28,152 bases of DNA, taken from Candidatus Caldarchaeales archaeon (GTDB lineage Archaea > Thermoproteota > Nitrososphaeria_A > Caldarchaeales > Wolframiiraptoraceae). Of this stretch, positions 2,218-24,704 are shown piece by piece. The stretch is taken from contig JBCNVN010000020.1 in NCBI GenBank assembly GCA_039630055.1, positions 1 through 28,152 of the forward strand. The letters are read 5' to 3'. Both the position numbers and the translations under genes were made by a program. Numbering within the stretch: the stretch's first letter is position 1; each line of letters opens with the position of its first letter. Below the pieces are notes generated by a model that saw only the letters and a list, made by a program, of their open reading frames with translations, was not told where the DNA came from and made no database searches.

Positions 2218-2292
2218 ATGGGATTCCAGAAAAACAGCATCACCAAATCCTTCTACTTCTTCTGGAGCTACTTCTATTTTGCCCTAGCATAA
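2218..2292 (+). CDS. Aromatic-residue-rich leader peptide (24 aa, MGFQKNSITKSFYFFWSYFYFALA)
   Basis: ATG 2218 to TAA 2290-2292; SD-like GAGGT at 2204-2208; codons 12-21 = F Y F F W S Y F Y F; ends 44 nt before lysC, first gene of the aromatic biosynthesis operon. Confidence 0.85.
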   Translation: MGFQKNSITKSFYFFWSYFYFALA

Positions 2293-2339
2293 GCTAGGGC
2301 GCCGAAAAATTCTTCTCTATATCGGGGTGCTCTGGTTTG
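2281..2339 (+). promoter_or_regulatory. Putative attenuator RNA switch (alternative hairpins controlling the lysC ribosome-binding site)
   Basis: GCCCTAGC-ataa-GCTAGGGC (2281-2300, perfect 8 bp) competes with a 14-pair helix 2290-2303/2326-2339 (9 Watson-Crick, 5 G-U) covering most of the SD GGGGTG and the TTG start. Confidence 0.7.
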
Positions 2340-3557
2340 GTTAAGAATATAGTAGTTAAACTGGGTGGATCTGTCTTAAAAGATGTTTCGGCAATAGCAG
2401 ATGCTGCAAACTGGGTTAGGAAGCTGGTTGAGAATGGTTACGGAGTGGTTGTCGTGGTCTCAGCATTGAAGGGAGTAACCGATGAGCTAATAAATACTGT
2501 GAAGAATTTATCGAAGAATCCTGAACCATCTTTGATAGATGAGATACTTGCGATGGGTGAGAGAACTAGTGTAAGACTTTTCGCTCTAGCATTGAGAGAA
2601 CATGGGATAAACACTTTATTCATCGATCCAGCAGATGAAAAATGGCCAATAATAACAAATGATAAACATTTAGACGCTGAGCCAATCTATGAAGAAACAA
2701 GGAAGAAGGTAGAGGAGAAGCTGGTTCCTTTGATACGGGAAGGAGTGGTTCCCGTGATCTGTGGATTCGTAGGCATCACCCGTCAAGGTAAGATAACAAC
2801 ACTAGGTAGAGGTGGAAGTGATACTACTGCAGTTCTACTTGGAAGCTGTCTTGACTCAGAAGAGATAGTATTGGTAAAAGATGTTCCAGGAATATTCTCA
2901 GCGGATCCAGATATTGTTGAAGATGCAAGAATACTTGAGGAACTAGATTTTAAAGAAGTTCAAGCGCTGGTAAGAGGCGGGTCAAAAATAATTCATACAA
3001 AGGCTTTAAGATATTTAAATAGACGACTAAAACTAAGGATCGCAAGTTTAAAAGAATTATTAAGTGATAGAGGAACAATTATCAAAGGATATGATCCAGA
3101 GATAGAGGTTTATGCTCCTCCTATCAGGATAGTGATGGCCACAATAGTTGGTAAGCATTTAGACGGTGTGCAGATATATGAGAAACTGATAGAAAAGCTG
3201 AAAGATCGAGGTATAAGAATAATAGCTCTGACCAGCGAGGAACAATCTCTAATACTATACGTTGAAGAAAAAGATGGGATAATAGGTGACATTCATTCAA
3301 GCCTCGTCTCTACTGACTTGGGTAAAGCCATCAGCTTCTATCAAGACCTAGCGATGCTGGTGATCTCTGGTAGAATGCTCGAGACGAGTCCAGGTATAAT
3401 ATACAAAGTTACCAAACCACTTGCAGAAGCTGGTATAAACATCTATGGACTGCTAACCATAAGTTCATCGATAAGGCTAATAATATCTAGTGGAGATATC
3501 CAGAAGACTAAAGAGATGTTAATAAAGGAATTAGAGAAAAGTGAGGTGAAAGGATGA
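2337..3557 (+). CDS. lysC: Aspartate kinase with C-terminal ACT domains
   Basis: VVKLGGSV, VVVVSA, GER, TTLGRGGSDTTA, DVPGIFSADP motifs; TTG start with SD GGGGTG at 2324-2329. Confidence 0.95.
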   Translation: MVKNIVVKLGGSVLKDVSAIADAANWVRKLVENGYGVVVVVSALKGVTDELINTVKNLSKNPEPSLIDEILAMGERTSVRLFALALREHGINTLFIDPADEKWPIITNDKHLDAEPIYEETRKKVEEKLVPLIREGVVPVICGFVGITRQGKITTLGRGGSDTTAVLLGSCLDSEEIVLVKDVPGIFSADPDIVEDARILEELDFKEVQALVRGGSKIIHTKALRYLNRRLKLRIASLKELLSDRGTIIKGYDPEIEVYAPPIRIVMATIVGKHLDGVQIYEKLIEKLKDRGIRIIALTSEEQSLILYVEEKDGIIGDIHSSLVSTDLGKAISFYQDLAMLVISGRMLETSPGIIYKVTKPLAEAGINIYGLLTISSSIRLIISSGDIQKTKEMLIKELEKSEVKG

Positions 3558-4606
3558 GAACTGTAAAGATTGGAGTACTTGGAGCGACGGGAATGGCTGG
3601 GGTAGAGTATGTAGAGCTACTTGCGAATCATCCATGGTTTAAGATATCCTGCCTTACTGGGAAGAAGAGCGTTGGAAAGAAGTATGGAGATGCAGTAAAA
3701 GCCTTGGTAAATGCTCCTAAAGAGATAGCAGATATAGAGATAGTTGAACCCGATCCGAAGAAGGTTGATGCCGATCTAGTCTTCTCCTCTCTACCTTCAG
3801 AGGTTGCAAGAGAGATAGAAACCAAATTTCTAGAACATGGTTTCCGGATCGTTAGCGAAACCTCAGCATATAGGATGGAGCTTGACGTCCCCTTGATAGT
3901 TCCAGAGATAAATCCAGAACATCTAGATCTAATAAAGATTCAGAGGAAGATTAGGGATGGATTCATAGTGACTACACCTAACTGTACTGCTGTAGGTCTT
4001 GCACTCTCACTCAAACCGATATTAGATAGTTTTGGGATTAGAAAGGTTGTCGTAGCAACTTATCAAGCGGTTACAGGTGCAGGCTTCCCCGGAGTACCAT
4101 CATTCTTGATACTTGGAAACATCATTCCATATATTAAGAAGGAAGAAGAGAAGGTCTCATCAGAGACTAAAAAGATCTTGGGGAGGCTGGACAAGGACAG
4201 GGTCGAGTATGCAAGATTCCCTGTTGAAGCATCATGTGCTAGAGTTCCAACTATTGATGGACATTTAGAAGCAGTCTATGTTGAGACAGAGAAAGATGTT
4301 AAAGTCGATGAGGCTGTTGAAGTATTTAGAAGATTTAGGGGAGAGCCTCAGAAGCTCAACCTACCTACAGCTCCGAGAGAACCTATACTGGTTACAGACA
4401 TCGAGGATAGACCTCAACCTAGATTGGATGTTATGTCTGGAACAGTACCGGGTATGAGCATTGTCGTGGGCAGGGTGAGGAGAGGAGAATCAAGTAATAC
4501 TCTAAAATACTTTGTATTGAGTCATAATAGAATCAGAGGAGCGGCGGGTGTAGCTATCTTGACAGCTGAACTCCTCGCAGTTAGAGGATACTTGGAGGGT
4601 GGTTAA
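3554..4606 (+). CDS. asd: Aspartate-semialdehyde dehydrogenase (archaeal type)
   Basis: LGATGMAG Rossmann motif, catalytic PNCT, RVPTIDGH, HNRIRGAAG; ATGA overlap with lysC. Confidence 0.96.
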   Translation: MRTVKIGVLGATGMAGVEYVELLANHPWFKISCLTGKKSVGKKYGDAVKALVNAPKEIADIEIVEPDPKKVDADLVFSSLPSEVAREIETKFLEHGFRIVSETSAYRMELDVPLIVPEINPEHLDLIKIQRKIRDGFIVTTPNCTAVGLALSLKPILDSFGIRKVVVATYQAVTGAGFPGVPSFLILGNIIPYIKKEEEKVSSETKKILGRLDKDRVEYARFPVEASCARVPTIDGHLEAVYVETEKDVKVDEAVEVFRRFRGEPQKLNLPTAPREPILVTDIEDRPQPRLDVMSGTVPGMSIVVGRVRRGESSNTLKYFVLSHNRIRGAAGVAILTAELLAVRGYLEGG

Positions 4607-5406
4607 TGGTCACTGGTAAACTTGTTAGAATCTCTAGAATAACCTCCAATAACAAGATGCTATGCGTCCCTATGGACCATGGGGTAACGGTTGGTCCGAT
4701 AAAGGGGATAGACCGGATCCATGAAACGATAGAGAAGGTTGAAAGAGGAGGTGCTACAGCGATATTGGTACATAAAGGAATTCTGAAGAGTCTGTTGAAA
4801 CCTCTCAAGTTGGGTTTAATAGTCCATCTATCAGCCTCAACCAGTTTATCTTCAAATCCAAACCTGAAAGTCAGGGTTGGAACCGTAGAAGAAGCAATAA
4901 GACTTGGAGCTGATGCGTTATCACTCCACATCAATGTAGGGAATAAAGATGAACAAGATATGCTGGTCAAGCTTGGAATGATGGCCGATCATTGTGATGA
5001 GTGGGGGATGCCCTTAATAGCGATGATGTATCCGAGAGGGGAGAACATAAAGAACCCAAACGATCCGAATTTGATAGCACATCTAGCAAGGATAGCTGCA
5101 GAGCTTGGAGCAGACATAGTAAAGGTTCCCATGCCCTCGTCAGACCCAGATGAAATTAAACTGATCGTTAGAGGATGCCCAGTGCCTATAGTTGCTGCTG
5201 GAGGGCCAAAACTAGATGATGACCGTCAAGTATTAGAGCTTGCCAATGCTGTGATTATGGCTGGAGGATACGGTATAACATTTGGTAGAAACATCTTTCA
5301 ACATAATGACCCAGAGCTTATCACTAGAGCGCTTAGAAAGATAGTGATCGATGGAGCAGGGGTCGAGGATGCTCTAAAAATACTTAAAGGTGCAGGCCAT
5401 GAATAA
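4606..5406 (+). CDS. aroA': 2-amino-3,7-dideoxy-D-threo-hept-6-ulosonate (ADH) synthase, class I aldolase family
   Basis: PMDHGVTVGP, MYPRG, ELGADIVK Schiff-base lysine, AGGPK, GRNIFQH; adjacent to DHQ synthase II; TAATG overlap with asd. Confidence 0.88.
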   Translation: MVTGKLVRISRITSNNKMLCVPMDHGVTVGPIKGIDRIHETIEKVERGGATAILVHKGILKSLLKPLKLGLIVHLSASTSLSSNPNLKVRVGTVEEAIRLGADALSLHINVGNKDEQDMLVKLGMMADHCDEWGMPLIAMMYPRGENIKNPNDPNLIAHLARIAAELGADIVKVPMPSSDPDEIKLIVRGCPVPIVAAGGPKLDDDRQVLELANAVIMAGGYGITFGRNIFQHNDPELITRALRKIVIDGAGVEDALKILKGAGHE

Positions 5407-6430
5407 ACATATAATACTATACCCGAAAAGTCTAGACAAGAAGATCTTAGATTATGCAGCATCTCTAGGTATAAAAGATGTTTACTATAAAAGCAAAGAA
5501 GTGCCTAGAGAAATTATAGGCTCCTTTAACATATACCTAGAGAAAGAGGATGGAGAAATAGAAGTAATAGGAAGAGATGCGGAGAAAAATGCTGTAAAGA
5601 TTAGAGTAGAAGAAGCTAATGATATTGAAAATGTTTTGAATACTGCACGCTCCGGAGCTAAGATGATACTGGTAGATACACCTTCATGGAAGATTATCCC
5701 CTTAGAGAATTTAATAGCAGAACTTCAAGGTACTGATGTAAGACTATATGCATATAGTCCAAGTCCTGAAGATGTTGAGGCCCTCCTAGGAGTTCTAGAG
5801 AGAGGTGTAGACGGAGTCGTCGTCAATGTAGATGATATTGAAGATGTTGAGAAGCTCTTCGAAATGATTAAAACAATTAGGAGGGTGGACTTGGTTGATG
5901 CTGAGGTTGTAGATGTTGAGAGCATCGGGATGGGTGATAGAGTATGTGTTGATACTGTATCTATACTAGATATGGGCGAGGGGTTGCTGGTCGGCAACAC
6001 TGCACAGTTCTTCTTCCTTGTACATAATGAAAATATTGAGTCGGTTTTCACAGCTCCCAGACCTTTTAGGGTTAACGCTGGAGCAGTACATTCATATGTA
6101 ATGATGCCTGATGGGTCAACCAGGTATCTTTCAGAGATCTCCTCTGGAACAAGAATTCTTATAGTATCGAGAAGTGGTCAAGCAAGGATGGTCACTGTCG
6201 GAAGAGTTAAGATTGAAAAGAGGCCTATGAGATTGATTAGAGCCAGGTTTAAAGATGTGGAAGGATCTGTAATCTTACAAGATGCTGAGACCATCAGGTT
6301 AGTTAAAGGTGGTGACTCATTTATCTCTGTAACAGACCTAAGCCCGGGTGAGAAGATCATAGCGCATATCTCAGAGGTTAAAGCAAGACATTTCGGAAAA
6401 GCAGTCAATGAATTTATCATAGAACGTTAG
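5399..6430 (+). CDS. aroB': 3-dehydroquinate synthase II
   Basis: WKIIPLENLIA, GDRVCVDT, RPFRVNAGAVHSY, LQDAETIRL, ARHFG. Start placed at ATG 5399 behind AAGGTG rather than GTG 5390. Confidence 0.95.
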   Translation: MNKHIILYPKSLDKKILDYAASLGIKDVYYKSKEVPREIIGSFNIYLEKEDGEIEVIGRDAEKNAVKIRVEEANDIENVLNTARSGAKMILVDTPSWKIIPLENLIAELQGTDVRLYAYSPSPEDVEALLGVLERGVDGVVVNVDDIEDVEKLFEMIKTIRRVDLVDAEVVDVESIGMGDRVCVDTVSILDMGEGLLVGNTAQFFFLVHNENIESVFTAPRPFRVNAGAVHSYVMMPDGSTRYLSEISSGTRILIVSRSGQARMVTVGRVKIEKRPMRLIRARFKDVEGSVILQDAETIRLVKGGDSFISVTDLSPGEKIIAHISEVKARHFGKAVNEFIIER

Positions 6431-6432
6431 AC

Positions 6433-7113
6433 ATGAAACCACAGGTCTGCGTAAGCATTAAAGCTAGGACGGTTGAAGAATTAGAATGGAAAGCTAAGAG
6501 AGCCTTAGATATAGGGGGAGACCTGGTCGAGCTCAGATTAGACTACCTTCTCAACCCCTTCGATGAAGACCTAACAAGACTAGTCTTAGACCTTAGTCAT
6601 AGAGTTGTCATAACAATTAGACCTTGGTGGGAGGGTGGAGAGTATCAGGGAGACGAGAGCTCGAGGATAAGTCTGTTTAATGAACTGGCAGAGTTGAAAC
6701 CTGCATATGTAGATTTAGAACTAAGAACTTTAAAGATGAAAGGAGACATTTGTATGAAGGCTCGTAAGATAGTATCATGGCATAGTCTAGACGGTACTCC
6801 GAGTATTGATATTATCAGTAGGACAGTTTACGAGATGCTAAAATTAGGAGACATCTCTAAGATAGTCACAAAGATCAACAATTTTGAAGAAAATTTAAAG
6901 ATCCTTAGACTATATAAAATGTATCCTCCAGAGAGGCTGATAGCATTTGGAATAGGCGAATACGGTATCCTTTCCCGAATACTCTCAATAATAATTGGGT
7001 CACCAATAGTATACTCATGTCTTCCGGGAGAGGAACTAGCTCCAGGTCAACTAACTGTTGGAGAGGTAGTTGAGATCATGCATCTCTTGGAGGATAAGAA
7101 GCTATGGAGATAA
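6433..7113 (+). CDS. aroD: 3-dehydroquinate dehydratase type I
   Basis: VELRLDYL, TIR...EGG, YVDLEL, VSWH, APGQ motifs; operon context. Confidence 0.92.
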   Translation: MKPQVCVSIKARTVEELEWKAKRALDIGGDLVELRLDYLLNPFDEDLTRLVLDLSHRVVITIRPWWEGGEYQGDESSRISLFNELAELKPAYVDLELRTLKMKGDICMKARKIVSWHSLDGTPSIDIISRTVYEMLKLGDISKIVTKINNFEENLKILRLYKMYPPERLIAFGIGEYGILSRILSIIIGSPIVYSCLPGEELAPGQLTVGEVVEIMHLLEDKKLWR

Positions 7114-7967
7114 CCTCGAAGAGTAAGCTTTACTGTTTGATAGGCCATCCAGTCGGGCACTCCATCTCTCCCCAAATACATAATGCTGCCTTCAAATATT
7201 TCAACCTAGACTGTGTTTATCTATCGTTTGATGTTGAGCCTATCCATCTATCTATGGTTGTTAGAGGGTTTAAGGCATTAAAAATCGGCGGTTTCAACGT
7301 TACTATACCACACAAGATATCTATAAGAAGATACATTGATGAACATGATATATCTTCAAAAGAGACCGGAGCAGTAAATACCGTAGTATTAAGAAATAAT
7401 AAATATGTAGGCTATAATACAGATGTTGAAGGAATAAAAAAGTCTCTAGAAGAATTTGAAGATCTAGTAGATGGGAGAGCTTTGATCTTAGGAGCGGGTG
7501 GAGTAGCTAGAGCAGCGGTGGCAGCTTTAAAATCGCTCGGTCTCGAAGAAATAATAATTGCAAATAGGAGATTGATGAGGGCGGCCGCCCTAGTTAGGAG
7601 ATTTAAGGATGAAGGTTTGAAGATGAGGCCTGTACATTTTCATGAAGCGAGAAGATACTCTAAATCCTGCTCTCTCATCATCAATGCAACACCTATAGGT
7701 ATGTGGCCACATATAGATGAAACACCATTAAACTCGAACGATATTTCAAGAGGATCATTAGTCCTCGACCTAGTCTATAACCCGCTAAAGACTAGATTTA
7801 TTGAAGAAGCGAGGAAAGCGGGTGCTAAGATAGTATATGGTTTAAAGCCTCTCATCGAACAGGCGAGAAGATCATTTCAACTATGGACAGGTTTTGAGCC
7901 TCCCCTAGAACTTCTCTGGAAGATAGCTGAGAAACAGCTTAAAGCTTGGGATAAACATGAAGGTTAG
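7104..7967 (+). CDS. aroE: Shikimate dehydrogenase
   Basis: GHSISPQIHN, NVTIPHK, GAVNT, GYNTD, GAGGVARA, NATPIGM, DLVYNP. Confidence 0.96.
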   Translation: MEITSKSKLYCLIGHPVGHSISPQIHNAAFKYFNLDCVYLSFDVEPIHLSMVVRGFKALKIGGFNVTIPHKISIRRYIDEHDISSKETGAVNTVVLRNNKYVGYNTDVEGIKKSLEEFEDLVDGRALILGAGGVARAAVAALKSLGLEEIIIANRRLMRAAALVRRFKDEGLKMRPVHFHEARRYSKSCSLIINATPIGMWPHIDETPLNSNDISRGSLVLDLVYNPLKTRFIEEARKAGAKIVYGLKPLIEQARRSFQLWTGFEPPLELLWKIAEKQLKAWDKHEG

Positions 7968-8829
7968 AGCAATCGTTCATGGAGCCATATCTATTCTCAA
8001 CGCCATTCCAGCTGGGATAGGTGGAGCGATCGGTATAGATCTTCAAACAATGGTTGAAGCAGAATCCTTAGAGGATGAAAAAAAGCTACATGTTGAGATA
8101 AAAGTAGAAGATGATAGAGTAGAAGATATTTCACTGGTGGAGAAGACGGTTGATAGGATTCTAAAACTTTCTAGAGACCGAGATATAGGAATAGGATTGA
8201 AGATCTCTTCAAATATTCCGGTTGCTAGAGGTTTAAAGAGTTCTAGTGCTGTGACAGATGCTGTAACCTTAGCTGTTTCAAAACTGCTCGGGATAGACCT
8301 AAGCCTAATGGAAGCTGTAAATCTAGCAGTTGAATCTTCTATAGATGCTGGAGTAACCATTACAGGCGCATATGATGATGCATTAACATGTATGATAGGA
8401 GGAGTAAACATTACGGATAACTATAAGAGAGAGATACTGGCCCACTGGGAGATCGAGGAGAAATACAGCATACTTATTATGGTACCTGAAAAAAAGATAT
8501 ATACAAAGACCGTAGATGTATCGGCCTTGAGAAACATTGGAGAACTTTCTCGAAGAGTTGCTGAACTTGCTCTTAATGGATGGATATGGGATGCGATGAT
8601 ACTCAACGGTATTCTGATTGCCTCGGCACTAGAACTAGATTATGAGCCTGTAATGGTTGCATTGAAGAATAAAGCGACTGCTTCAGGGATCTCCGGTAAG
8701 GGGCCTGCTGTAGTCGCTGTTACATTACCAGAATATGAGAGAGAGCTAGAGACCGAGCTCAAGAATTATGGTAAGATTATAAAGACTAGACCTAGCAACC
8801 AGCTTGCAAAAGTAGAAGTTGTAAAATAA
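7957..8829 (+). CDS. aroK: Archaeal shikimate kinase (GHMP family)
   Basis: GAISILNAIPAGIG, IPVARGLKSSSA, VTITGAYDD, SGKGP. Confidence 0.94.
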   Translation: MKVRAIVHGAISILNAIPAGIGGAIGIDLQTMVEAESLEDEKKLHVEIKVEDDRVEDISLVEKTVDRILKLSRDRDIGIGLKISSNIPVARGLKSSSAVTDAVTLAVSKLLGIDLSLMEAVNLAVESSIDAGVTITGAYDDALTCMIGGVNITDNYKREILAHWEIEEKYSILIMVPEKKIYTKTVDVSALRNIGELSRRVAELALNGWIWDAMILNGILIASALELDYEPVMVALKNKATASGISGKGPAVVAVTLPEYERELETELKNYGKIIKTRPSNQLAKVEVVK

Positions 8830-16300: not shown

Positions 16301-16470
16301 ACTCCACTGGTAAGAAGCCGACTCACTGATTTTTATATTTTTTCTATCTTTCCAGCTTGATAAATATAGTTTTGCATCAAAATTTACATACTATTCTGAA
16401 ATGTCTCTCCGATAGCTCAGAGTAGAAATATCTCATATCACGGATCTTCCATATCTATCTAGAATCCCTA

Positions 16471-16603
16471 AATCTTCAAGACTCTTTCAAATAGGATTTA
16501 TTTATTCAGGTCTCCCGACTTTACCCTTACGCGGTACAGCTCTCCACAGCACGTAACACTTAATAAACATACTTCAAATAAATTCCTATTTGGACTGAAG
16601 ATT
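16471..16603. repeat. Degenerate inverted-repeat pair (MITE-like remnant or paired operator)
   Basis: CAAATAGGATTTATTT (16488-16503) versus AAATAAATTCCTATTTG (16576-16592, one indel), with outer AATCTTCA (16471-16478) / TGAAGATT (16596-16603). Confidence 0.5.
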
Positions 16604-16647
16604 AAGAGTTTATATTATTGTGAAATGTTATACAAGTCTAGATTAGA

Positions 16648-17937
16648 TTGGATAGGGTATATGTTAACCCCTCGATAGTATATGGTGAAGTAAATGCTCC
16701 TCCGAGTAAGAGCTATACCCATAGAGCTTATGCCGTATCTTTACTAGTCGATGGTAAAAACTTCATATACAGTCCACTTAGATCGAGAGATACTCAAGCA
16801 ACTTTAAGAGCATGTCAACAGTTTGGAGCAGAAGTCTATGAGGAGGGAAGTTCTAAAATTATTGTAGGCGGCGGCTTAAAGCTACCTGAAAATATTGTAG
16901 ATGCTGAAAACTCTGGAACAACACTTAGAATATTTACAGCGATATCTGCACTTCCACCATCTGGATATGTTGTATTGACAGGCGATGAGAGTTTGAGGAG
17001 GAGACCTATGAAACCATTACTAGATGCTCTCAAGCTCTTAGGAGTAGATTGCTGGTCTACGAGGGGAGATGGATGTGCACCTATAATCGTTAAATCAGGT
17101 GGGATAAAAGGTGGAGAAACGGTTGTGAGAGGAGATGTATCATCCCAGTTTGTCTCTGCATTACTGATAGCCTCTACTAAAGCTGAGAGAGAGACAAAGA
17201 TAAGAGTTGAAGGAAACATAGTATCAAAGAAGTATATCGATGCAACTATAGAAGTGCTGAAGAGATACGGGTATCATGTTCGGAGGGAAGGTTACACACT
17301 ATTTGAAGTAGAACCGAGTCAGCATGGACACCCCACCCATTTTAAGATACCTGGAGACTTTAGTTCAGCCTCATTCCTCTTCGCCGGTGCATATTTAACT
17401 GGTGGAAGAGTCGAGATAGAGAATCTAAGCCTAGACCTTCCCCAGGCAGATTCAGTCATAATCGATATTCTAAGAGATTTCGATAATAAGGTAACTATCG
17501 GCTCATCTAAGATTATTGTGGAAAGTAGAGGTATCAGTTCAGGTGATAGAGAGTATGATCTAGTAGACTCGCCAGATCTAGTTCCAGTGATCGCAGTCAT
17601 GGCCTCAAAATCTCCTGGAGAGACAATTATCAAAGGTGTTAGACATGCAAGGTTCAAAGAGAGCGATAGAATTACTTCGACTGCACTTGAATTAAGGAAG
17701 CTCAATATAGATGTAGAAATATTGGAGGATGGTATGAAGATAAGAGGTAGAGAAGAGATTGAAGGTGGGGTAGAGTTAGATTCACATAATGATCATAGAT
17801 TATCGATGGCCTTCTCAATACTTGCAGCATCGACAAGGAAAGGATGTATCGTAAACGGATTAAGATGGGCTGAGATCTCTTATCCGAACTATCTTGAAGA
17901 CTTGAAAAAACTAGGTGTATCATTTAGAGAGGTTTGA
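16648..17937 (+). CDS. aroA: 3-phosphoshikimate 1-carboxyvinyltransferase (EPSP synthase)
   Basis: PPSKSYTHRA, NSGTTLR, RRPM, SSQFVSALL, PGDFSSA, RFKESDRI, DHRLSM. Confidence 0.96.
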   Translation: MDRVYVNPSIVYGEVNAPPSKSYTHRAYAVSLLVDGKNFIYSPLRSRDTQATLRACQQFGAEVYEEGSSKIIVGGGLKLPENIVDAENSGTTLRIFTAISALPPSGYVVLTGDESLRRRPMKPLLDALKLLGVDCWSTRGDGCAPIIVKSGGIKGGETVVRGDVSSQFVSALLIASTKAERETKIRVEGNIVSKKYIDATIEVLKRYGYHVRREGYTLFEVEPSQHGHPTHFKIPGDFSSASFLFAGAYLTGGRVEIENLSLDLPQADSVIIDILRDFDNKVTIGSSKIIVESRGISSGDREYDLVDSPDLVPVIAVMASKSPGETIIKGVRHARFKESDRITSTALELRKLNIDVEILEDGMKIRGREEIEGGVELDSHNDHRLSMAFSILAASTRKGCIVNGLRWAEISYPNYLEDLKKLGVSFREV

Positions 17938-18548: not shown

Positions 18549-19670
18549 ATGATTAGAGTGACAGGGAATATTCTTGGTGAAAGATTTGTAGTAGTAAGCT
18601 TTGGTGAAAGCCATGGTAGATGTATAGGTGTAGTAGTTGACGGGTGTCCCGCCGGACTAGAAATCTCAGAGATAGATATTCAGAGAGAGCTAGATCTGAG
18701 AAGACCTGGACTAGCTGAGATATATACTAAGAGAATGGAAGAAGATAGAGTAGAGATCTTGTCAGGAGTATTTAATGGATATACTACTGGAGCACCAATA
18801 TGTATGATTGTATGGAATAAAGATGTAAAGAGTAAAGATTATGAATCATTAAGATATATGCCTAGACCTGGACACGCAGATTATTTCGCACATGTAAAAT
18901 ATGGCGGTTTCAATGATTATAGAGGAGGGGGAAGATTTTCCGGCAGAATTACCGCAGGCTTCGTAATGGCTGGAGCAATAGCCAAGAAACTTCTGAGAAG
19001 AGTTCTGGGAATAGAGATAGTAGCATACTCATTAGAGATTGGAGGGGAGAGAGCTGAGGATTTTACACTTGAAGATGCTCGAAGATTCAGATATGAGAAT
19101 GAAGTGAGAGCTCCAACAATCAAGTCTGCAGAAAAGATGAAGGAAAAGATAATGGAAGCTATGTCGAAAGGTGATAGTGTAGGAGGAATAGTTGAATGTG
19201 TAGTAGCAGGGTTGCCGATAGGTCTTGGAGAGCCAGTATTCGACTCGCTCGACTCAGATTTAGCTAAAGCCTTATTCTCTATTCCAGCTGTTAAAGGTGT
19301 AGAGTTTGGAGCAGGATTCAAAGCATCCAGAATGTTAGGCTCTCAACATAATGATCCGATGGTCATACGGGATGGTGAGATCGTTCTTCAGAAGAATGAT
19401 GCTGGAGGAGTTATTGGCGGGATCTCTACTGGAGCACCAATAATCTTTAGAGTCGTATTCAAACCACCCTCATCTATATCTGTAAAACAGAAGACTGTAG
19501 ATATAAAGAATAGAAAAGAGGTTGAGATCACTGTGAGCGGTAGACATGATCCATGTATTGTTCCAAGAGCAGTCCCTGTAGTTGAATCCATATCTGCTAT
19601 TGTATTAGCTGATCATGCATTAAGAGGAGGCTTTATACCTACAGTAATAAAAAGTAATTTGAGAGAGTAG
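18549..19670 (+). CDS. aroC: Chorismate synthase
   Basis: FGESHG, RRPG, PRPGHAD, YRGGGRFSGR, GGISTG, GRHDPC. Start could be GTG 18558. Confidence 0.97.
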   Translation: MIRVTGNILGERFVVVSFGESHGRCIGVVVDGCPAGLEISEIDIQRELDLRRPGLAEIYTKRMEEDRVEILSGVFNGYTTGAPICMIVWNKDVKSKDYESLRYMPRPGHADYFAHVKYGGFNDYRGGGRFSGRITAGFVMAGAIAKKLLRRVLGIEIVAYSLEIGGERAEDFTLEDARRFRYENEVRAPTIKSAEKMKEKIMEAMSKGDSVGGIVECVVAGLPIGLGEPVFDSLDSDLAKALFSIPAVKGVEFGAGFKASRMLGSQHNDPMVIRDGEIVLQKNDAGGVIGGISTGAPIIFRVVFKPPSSISVKQKTVDIKNRKEVEITVSGRHDPCIVPRAVPVVESISAIVLADHALRGGFIPTVIKSNLRE

Positions 19671-24596: not shown

Positions 24597-24704
24597 GCCC
24601 CGGTAGCTCAGCCCGGGAGAGCGCCCGGCTGAAGATAAATCCGAGATAGAGAGGTTTTTGTAATGGGAACCGGGTTGTCGCAGGTTCAAATCCTGCCCGG
24701 GGCA
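24597..24704 (+). tRNA. tRNA-Phe(GAA) with a 34-nt intron at 37/38 (about 24635-24668); CCA not encoded
   Basis: Acceptor GCCCCGG/CCGGGGC+A; D arm GCTC/GAGC; anticodon stem CCCGG/CCGGG with CT-GAA-G; T arm GCAGG-TTCAAAT-CCTGC. Confidence 0.95.

Follow-up and report, generated by a model that had tools for sequence, protein, structure and literature searches.

What does a short, aromatic-rich reading frame do at the head of an archaeal operon for aromatic amino-acid synthesis, and which of the two mutually exclusive RNA helices that can form at its end matters? The locus lies in a 28,152-nucleotide stretch of DNA from a Candidatus Caldarchaeales archaeon (GenBank assembly GCA_039630055.1, contig JBCNVN010000020.1, positions 1 to 28,152; hereafter the window), and all features below are on its forward strand. 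A predicted leader open reading frame (ORF) of 24 codons plus stop (2218–2292; MGFQKNSITKSFYFFWSYFYFALA) carries six Phe, three Tyr and one Trp, making 10 of the 24 codons of the predicted translation aromatic, and stands ahead of an aspartate kinase–asd–shikimate operon whose first gene is a lysC-like aspartate kinase (2337–3557; Pfam AA_kinase, 3.8e-49). A preliminary description of this DNA saw here a translational attenuator, in which a ribosome stalled on the early aromatic codons keeps a hairpin between arms A and B and leaves the lysC ribosome-binding site (RBS) open, whereas read-through melts the hairpin and lets arm B bury the Shine–Dalgarno sequence (SD) and TTG start codon of the kinase. 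Both helices, A:B and B:RBS, are present 5′ of the operon, but A:B alone is conserved in relatives. Of the earlier interpretation, the leader-ORF attenuator and the A:B hairpin stand, and the conservation of B:RBS and the ON/OFF logic do not. We consider it likely that the element is a ribosome-sensing leader attenuator of some kind. More tentatively, with somewhat less than even confidence, we read the segment at 2281–2339 as the 3′ half of a ribosome-sensing leader (upstream ORF) attenuator that heads the aspartate kinase–asd–aro mRNA and would act by ribosome occlusion; a B:RBS switch over the ribosome site of the enzyme is probably not how the sensor works.

A conserved hairpin at the end of the leader ORF

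Upstream regions were read at aspartate kinase orthologs heading the same operon in 24 related genomes. Counting the window, a clearly homologous leader is present at 11 of these 25 kinase loci, in the genera designated g1 (eight genomes, the window included) and g3 (three genomes). Genus g2 was added by searching the family at the DNA level and by matching a leader pattern against all 76 genomes of the order. Of these 76 genomes, 25 matched; the matches in G034, G066 and G041 were chance matches inside unrelated sequence and were dropped, leaving 22 true leaders, distributed over g1 (8/8), g3 (3/3) and g2 (11/14), with none in the other 12 genera. RNAalifold and pair counting used an alignment of 19 of these leaders, which does not include three g2 leaders found later; a second alignment (A2), with arm B misaligned in several rows, was set aside.

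An intact ORF of 23–32 codons with 8–11 aromatic residues is present in all 22 leaders, opening at a conserved ATG (TTG or GTG in a few) after a GAGG-type SD. Its N-terminal half varies in sequence and length, and the start codon, the SD spacing and the open frame are kept throughout despite insertions and deletions. The C-terminal motif F-W-S-Y-x-Y-F-A-L-A is conserved, as are the terminal UAU-UUU codons (UAY-UUY in L082), and the last Phe codon adjoins arm A in every leader. In the window, the last four aromatic codons, Tyr18 Phe19 Tyr20 Phe21, lie at 2269–2280, directly against arm A (2281–2288; GCCCTAGC), which consists of the last sense codons, Ala-Leu-Al(a). The hairpin loop ATAA (2289–2292) contains the leader stop codon TAA (2290–2292) and is followed by arm B (2293–2300; GCTAGGGC). 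The arms are exact reverse complements around this 4-nt loop, so the perfect 8-bp hairpin of the preliminary description, with the stop codon in its loop, is confirmed by the sequence. Across the 22 leaders, arm A is made of Ala-Leu/Pro-Ala codons, the stop codon invariably starts at the second loop nucleotide, and all eight A:B pairs can form in 21.

RNAalifold places only two helices in the 19 aligned sequences, A:B and a second helix, P1. Together they have 96.7% of their cells paired, against 33–61% when the 3′ partners are slid by one to three columns. All 19 sequences keep the seven inner pairs of A:B, and two A:B pairs show compensatory change (UA in 12, UG in five and CG in two; GC in 13, AU in three and GU in three), which supports A:B as a conserved hairpin by covariation. 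In the window, the minimum free energy (MFE) structure and the RNAalifold consensus put the 5′ arm of P1 at 2197–2207 (AGCTCCAGAGG), including the GAGG SD of the leader itself; its 3′ arm at 2259–2269 (CTTCTGGAGCT), placed by the same evidence and by pair counts, corresponds to the Phe15-Trp16-Ser17 codons. P1 is paired in 95.2% of cells and varies by one-sided changes only (A-U to G-U and G-U to G-C), a pattern that is compatible with pairing and would not by itself prove it. The P1 3′ arm carries TCTGG.G.T, invariant in the 19 sequences. The loop that P1 closes, about 50 nt long, is not conserved.

Two invariant G+C-rich helices with highly conserved loop-proximal sequence could also be expected of a binding site for a protein or small-molecule effector, of the riboswitch or TRAP kind, with the ORF merely incidental. 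Such a site fits poorly with a start codon, SD spacing and frame that survive insertions and deletions in 22/22 leaders and with an unconserved P1 loop, and a search of 1800–2700 against Rfam 15 gave no family match at E ≤ 1, leader RNA families included. Of all the readings considered here, we hold this one to be extremely unlikely.

The conserved C-terminal motif could likewise point away from attenuation, to a functional aromatic-rich micropeptide, or the frame could be a ribosome-loading or reinitiation booster, with P1 and A:B serving mRNA stability or 5′-end protection. Bacterial leader genes have been proposed to raise downstream translation by reinitiation (PMC4833913). Elsewhere in the leader, however, aromatic residues interchange (Y/F, with aromatic blocks inserted in g2) and the N-terminal half is unconstrained. 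The conserved W-S and A-L-A residues coincide with helix arms, so RNA pairing explains them, and unrelated Tyr/Phe/Trp-rich leaders ahead of the same operon in other genera argue that codon identity, not a particular peptide, is what is kept. An explanation without attenuation is distinctly unlikely in our estimate.

The helix over the kinase start is not conserved

The competing helix joins a 5′ strand at 2290–2303 (TAAGCTAGGGCGCC), made up of the stop codon, arm B and GCC, to a 3′ strand at 2326–2339 (GGTGCTCTGGTTTG), which comprises GGTG of the SD, the spacer and the TTG. As first described, these strands form 14 contiguous pairs, nine Watson–Crick and five G-U (2290/2339, 2293/2336, 2295/2334, 2298/2331 and 2301/2328). 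The helix spans most of the SD, namely four of its six bases (GGTG of GGGGTG, 2324–2329), and the entire start codon (2337–2339). The start codon itself is backed by the 11 kinase-bearing leaders, in which the same column holds TTG in seven (L001–L007), GTG in three (L009–L011) and ATG in one (L008), 6–9 nt past a GGGGTG/GAGGTG motif. B:RBS is the longest helix of Watson–Crick and G-U pairs within 2197–2360, and a helix of at least 14 pairs arises in 7 of 1,000 dinucleotide-preserving shuffles of that region. Among all 21-nt windows in 2120–2520, the best partner of 2290–2309 is the RBS (−22.2 kcal/mol).

Taken as a helix on its own at 37 °C, B:RBS (−19.6 kcal/mol) is stronger than A:B (−16.3 kcal/mol). 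The unconstrained MFE structure nevertheless holds A:B rather than B:RBS, because the RBS region can fold locally while A:B is in place, so that the whole-structure optimum keeps the hairpin. The best whole structure with A:B has −53.1 kcal/mol at 37 °C against −49.8 with B:RBS forced, −27.26 against −25.37 at 60 °C, and −12.62 against −12.38 at 75 °C, where the two are near-isoenergetic. The mean pair probability of B:RBS rises accordingly from 0.007 (37 °C) through 0.07 (60 °C) to 0.15 (75 °C). The preliminary description had allowed that the helix might prove unstable at growth temperature; by the 75 °C energies it is thermodynamically competitive at a thermophilic temperature. The region 2197–2360 as a whole folds better than all 200 shuffles (z = −3.6). 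The local RBS hairpin of the MFE structure (2309–2314:2343–2348, 2317–2319:2338–2340 and 2321–2326:2331–2336) is absent from the RNAalifold consensus of the 19 sequences.

Conservation of B:RBS did not hold up. Its homologous columns are paired in 61.7% of cells in the 19-sequence alignment, no better than column shuffles (mean 61.3%; 216 of 500 reach 61.7%), and sliding the partner by one column gives 65.1%; the helix is not in the RNAalifold consensus of these sequences. Because the spacing between SD and start codon varies, we added an alignment-free test. It took a 20-nt segment starting at the stop codon and an interval that begins 2 nt ahead of the SD and reaches 6 nt into the gene, and compared their best duplex with those given by 500 shuffles of the interval. 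Six of the 22 leaders reached p ≤ 0.05, namely L001 (the window), L002, L005 and L007 in g1 and L010 and L011 in g3; L003, L004, L006, L008, L009 and all 11 g2 leaders, which have lost the kinase, gave no significant duplex. In full-context folds at 70 °C, with the last Phe codon occupied by a modelled ribosome, opening the RBS was harder than with a shuffled arm B in 3/22 leaders: the window (0/40 shuffles), L010 (0.05) and L052 (0.03).

The pattern among close relatives is mixed. L002, the closest relative, keeps 14/14 B:RBS pairs through two transitions to G-U, L005 and L007 have a bulged version, and no double compensatory change was found among the leaders. The kinase tree joins (L001,L002), (L003,L004), L005, L006 and L007 in a single polytomy, the g1 core. 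B:RBS may be ancestral to this core, with losses in some members, or may be fortuitous.

The g2 leaders bear directly on the role of lysC. In these 11 (L044, L047–L050, L052–L054 and L082–L084), aspartate kinase and asd are gone from the operon, and what remains is the aromatic leader, P1, A:B, the linker, the SD and an ATG with the first kinase-like codons (MSGV...). Because g2 keeps P1, the aromatic run, A:B and the linker without aspartate kinase or asd, the conserved core is independent of any lysC-specific pairing. The g2 ATG opens a short frame of varying length, which in several leaders ends overlapping the start of the aldolase of the 2-amino-3,7-dideoxy-D-threo-hept-6-ulosonate (ADH) synthase type, as if it were kept for translational coupling. 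That aldolase begins MVWGKRVRLSR in g2 and MVTGKLVRISR in the window.

Ribosome position and the sign of control

Each modelled ribosome masked the RNA from 15 nt before the first A-site base to 12 nt past it, and RBS opening costs were calculated for the 22 leaders at 70 °C from the thermodynamic model only. The size of the mask is an assumption drawn from bacterial footprints. When the A site holds the stop codon, the mask (2275–2302) covers arms A and B together. Because B starts 1 nt past the stop codon, a terminating ribosome covers it, and read-through cannot leave B free. The preliminary description had read-through melting A:B and B then burying the RBS; instead, release would free both arms at once, with the local A:B hairpin favoured (pair probability at 75 °C of 0.82, against 0.15 for B:RBS). 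Arm A is covered with B left free only when the A-site codon is one of Tyr18 to Phe21 (2269–2280).

In the model, a stall at the end of this run makes the kinase RBS harder to open in most leaders. A ribosome on the last Phe codon raises the RBS opening cost by more than 0.5 kcal/mol in 18/22 leaders (mean +1.6) and never lowers it by more than 0.5; on the Trp codon, the cost rises by more than 0.5 in 14/22 and falls by more than 0.5 in 2/22. On codon 6 it is unchanged in all 22, and on the stop codon it is slightly lowered (mean −0.5; below −0.5 in 10/22). A stall on the early aromatic codons, claimed to be the ON state, gives the window an RBS cost of 4.5 kcal/mol against 3.9 without a ribosome, which is no distinct ON state. 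The RBS is not buried in the predicted resting state, since the MFE structure and the ensemble both hold A:B. A Tyr or Phe stall would free B and so close the lysC RBS in starvation, which makes a translational effect of arm B wrong-signed for a biosynthetic operon.

These results bear most directly on the translational attenuator originally proposed. In its favour, B:RBS is the longest helix of the region and specific to the RBS, its energy at 75 °C is close to that of the A:B state, L002 retains all 14 pairs, and this genome has no U-tract. On the other side are the missing conservation (61.7% of cells; 6/22 and 3/22 leaders), with the helix absent from L003, L004 and L006 of the same genus as well as from the 11 g2 leaders; a terminating ribosome that covers B and, after its release, favours A:B and the local RBS fold; and an early stall that equals the resting state, which would make ON the default. 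P1 would moreover shut the leader SD on the mature mRNA, limiting the repeated translation of the leader that a steady-state switch needs. We judge this mechanism very unlikely. The value of the B:RBS finding is mostly corrective: the eye-catching helix over the RBS is the unconserved part, and its logic conflicts with the ribosome footprint.

A separate complementarity was noticed between the Tyr/Phe codons of the leader and the Ile-Val-Val codons of the kinase (2274–2277:2349–2352 and 2270–2272:2354–2356). As a candidate mask of the RBS, with the aromatic codons covering kinase codons 2–7, it would have the right sign, and its duplex was stronger than in shuffles in 4/22 leaders at 37 °C (L003, L004, L006 and L007) and 0/22 at 70 °C. 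With energies at 70 °C of only −0.3 to −4.0 kcal/mol, it was rejected as too weak for a thermophile.

A proposed ribosome-occlusion model

If the RBS helix is not the switch, what would prevent A:B from forming? In transcripts ending immediately upstream of the SD and folded with a mask over the Trp-codon region, A:B keeps a pair probability of 0.96–1.00 in 22/22 leaders. The 5′ arm of P1 was considered as an antiterminator and rejected, because the freed arm pairs with A at P ≤ 0.01 in all 22; its duplexes with the linker or the RBS were significant in 0/22 leaders at p ≤ 0.05 (400 shuffles). The modelling thus shows no conserved RNA alternative to A:B, and because the hairpin persists with the Trp region masked, only a ribosome on arm A could prevent it.

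We propose that a ribosome short of Tyr or Phe would stall on the invariant UAU-UUU codons adjoining arm A, cover A and so block the hairpin; the invariable position of these codons against arm A fits occlusion sensing. When the ribosome has terminated or has never loaded, A:B (and P1) would fold, and the folded hairpin would act as a negative element for downstream expression. Most likely, it would make the archaeal RNA polymerase more prone to pause or terminate in the linker, which is rich in T and pyrimidines, perhaps together with FttA/aCPSF1. P1 would close the leader SD on the finished mRNA, which fits a sensor that is loaded with ribosomes during transcription and read once. Here and in a few of the relatives, the arm B freed during a stall could also pair with the lysC RBS; we take this pairing for chance complementarity or for a side effect specific to the lineage, and not for the switch.

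The linker between hairpin and SD (2301–2323) is pyrimidine-rich by composition, with TTCTTCTCTAT at 2310–2320. The pyrimidine-rich tract (10 of 11 bases) and the lack of a hairpin-plus-U-tract terminator in this genome (no T run longer than two between hairpin and SD) are both as the preliminary description had them. As cut for the comparison (22 nt), the window linker has a T fraction of 0.36 and a pyrimidine fraction of 0.64; T fractions across the leaders range from 0.33 to 0.63. A run of four or more T (T4) is present in 14/22 linkers, against 8.5 expected from shuffled linkers. The genome encodes an FttA/aCPSF1 ortholog (TIGR03675, 760.7 bits; cut-off 580.2), a factor that is reported to act together with U-tracts (PMC8716108).

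Several points weigh against the occlusion mechanism. In kinetic terms, a ribosome following close behind the polymerase would be expected to cover arm A in replete cells too, and stalls on F12–W16 would be predicted to leave A:B intact, so that the model requires the polymerase to pause and ribosomes to stall on the last four codons. The T runs of the window linker do not exceed two. The T-tracts of the relatives begin, by eye, about 9–19 nt past the hairpin and are not adjacent to it as in bacterial intrinsic terminators. Gene 3′ ends within the window are without obvious oligo-T terminators. Finally, B:RBS is statistically unusual here (7/1000 shuffles), which a pure side effect leaves unexplained.

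B:RBS could also be functional under a different logic. In lineages that have no U-tract, it would keep the lysC RBS closed during a leader stall and be unwound by the same ribosome on its way to the stop codon, which would present a newly opened RBS, 45 nt further on, for initiation; or the helix would have taken the place of the U-tract as the output of the sensor. Of the eight leaders without a T4 run, five have a significant duplex, against one of the 14 with such a run (one-sided Fisher, 0.011). The duplex is seen in the g1 core and in the g3 pair, two groups that differ in its register, and a ribosome on the stop codon slightly lowers the RBS cost (mean −0.5 kcal/mol). The genomes are kin, however, and the kinase tree leaves two to three independent contrasts at most, so the Fisher value overstates the association, which in this sequence comparison would be a lead rather than a result. 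T-less L006, of the same genus, is without the duplex, no double compensatory change is seen, and closing the RBS in starvation would again have the wrong sign for a biosynthetic operon. We consider a functional B:RBS of this kind unlikely. We would give a similarly low chance to the idea that the same aromatic sensor is wired to two outputs within one family, T-tract termination in most lineages and, where the T-tract was lost, as in this genome, pairing of arm B with the RBS. If true, this would be a natural attenuator switch between transcriptional and translational control; were the T4 association real, the translational reading over the lysC RBS would be partly vindicated for this lineage, though not the logic given for it.

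The operon and its surroundings

Downstream of the kinase, the operon continues with asd (3554–4606; Pfam Semialdhyde_dh), a DeoC-family aldolase of the ADH synthase type (4606–5406; Pfam DeoC, 9.6e-55), 3-dehydroquinate (DHQ) synthase II (5390–6430; Pfam DHQS, 2.9e-104), aroD (dehydroquinase, 6433–7113; Pfam DHquinase_I), aroE (shikimate dehydrogenase, 7104–7967; Pfam Shikimate_dh_N) and a GHMP-type kinase (7957–8829; Pfam GHMP_kinases_N). These genes overlap or abut, in agreement with the overlapping stop/start junctions reported earlier. We take the operon to be the archaeal aspartate-semialdehyde/DKFP route to shikimate, which makes an aspartate kinase behind an aromatic-codon leader metabolically sensible. 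The distance from the leader stop to the kinase TTG is 45 nt. A frameshift from the leader into the kinase was considered and excluded by this gap and by a TAG at 2295–2297 that shuts the kinase frame (open frame of 419 aa).

On the promoter side, a TATA-like box at 2166–2176 (TTTAATTATAA) was identified by sequence. The usual archaeal TATA-to-start spacing places the predicted transcript start at about 2197, and with this start P1 would open the extreme 5′ end of the mRNA. A TTTAATTA-type box lies at an equal distance 5′ of the P1 5′ arm in the 11 kinase-bearing relatives, and g2 has AT-rich TATA-like boxes at comparable positions.

Other leaders were seen ahead of the same operon outside the 22. 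In genus g4 (L012–L016) and in L017 (G040, genus g11), unrelated Tyr/Trp/Phe-rich leader ORFs lie about 60–170 nt 5′ of the kinase (for example, MRDRLFLTTGYRYYRYSEPDASL in g4; VVRAVGLTCTGFSAFTTFSYYYRW in G040). Each is enclosed by a helix in which the leader SD pairs with the last codons and the stop (AGAGAGGCG:CGCCTCTCT in g4), followed by a pyrimidine tract; in L016 of g4, the MFE structure pairs that 3′ arm with the kinase SD instead. About 30–45 nt 5′ of the kinase match in L023–L025 (g7) is a conserved ATGCGGTGGTGA mini-frame (Met-Arg-Trp-stop), possibly a minimal Trp-codon leader.

Within the window, EPSP synthase (16648–17937) and chorismate synthase (18549–19670) are encoded outside the leader-controlled operon, and inspection by eye of the 347 nt ahead of EPSP synthase (16301–16647) showed no aromatic leader. 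A naive whole-genome scan for codon-biased mini-ORFs with a hairpin over the stop codon, unfiltered for intergenic position, yielded no second equally clear case; the leader studied here scored an enrichment of 8/10 and a hairpin of −16.4 kcal/mol in that scan. An archaeal tRNA with an intron probably accounts for a 108-nt Rfam tRNA match in the window (24597–24704; 56.4 bits), which was not among the ARAGORN calls.

Comparison with known attenuators

The E. coli pheL–pheA, trpL and hisL leaders are bacterial leader-peptide transcription attenuators. Like them, the Caldarchaeales leader is a short ORF rich in codons for the end products, located at the 5′ end of a biosynthetic operon with a stable hairpin just downstream, and in both cases stalled ribosomes would change which RNA structures form. 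Unlike them, it belongs to an archaeal host and RNA polymerase, matches no Rfam leader family and has no antiterminator of the 2:3 type. Its stop codon lies inside the hairpin loop, with the ORF running through arm A, its own SD is sequestered by P1, and in this genome no U-run adjoins the hairpin.

Another parallel is E. coli pyrBI, in which a translating ribosome physically blocks the terminator hairpin. There, as here in 22/22 leaders, the ORF extends into the hairpin, and ribosome occlusion, not an alternative helix, would decide the outcome. The two differ in that pyrBI responds to UTP by way of polymerase pausing and is ON as long as the ribosome keeps pace, whereas the signal in the present leader would have to be stalling on the aromatic codons by the hairpin, and a U-tract is not always present.

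Two translational systems resemble the B:RBS reading. In mycobacterial leaderless short ORFs encoding polycysteine, the closest translational analogue described, a stalled ribosome blocks an RBS-sequestering structure (bioRxiv 10.1101/834739). The likeness lies in a short ORF of amino-acid-specific codons and in downstream control through RBS accessibility. In that account a stall opens the RBS, whereas here it covers A, frees B and would close the RBS, and the pairing is unconserved. In the ermC and cat leaders, too, two helices exclude each other, and one of them hides the start codon and the SD of the gene under control. There, however, the RBS is buried at rest and stalling places the ribosome on the strand competing for that RBS, whereas the resting state of the present leader is A:B and not B:RBS.

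Leader-peptide attenuation is a textbook bacterial mechanism, and judging by titles and the openings of abstracts we found no report of it in Archaea. The aromatic leader described here is conserved in 22 thermophilic Caldarchaeales genomes of three genera, ahead of the aspartate-semialdehyde-dependent aromatic route. The window comes from the Wolframiiraptoraceae, a thermophilic family that includes the genus of Candidatus Geocrenenecus huangii (PMC9246946). With no antiterminator, a stop codon in the hairpin and a sequestered SD, the leader offers a direct handle on archaeal translation–termination coupling, whether intrinsic or FttA-dependent. If the proposed reading is right, the wider point is that ribosome-sensing leader attenuation exists in Archaea as well as in Bacteria.

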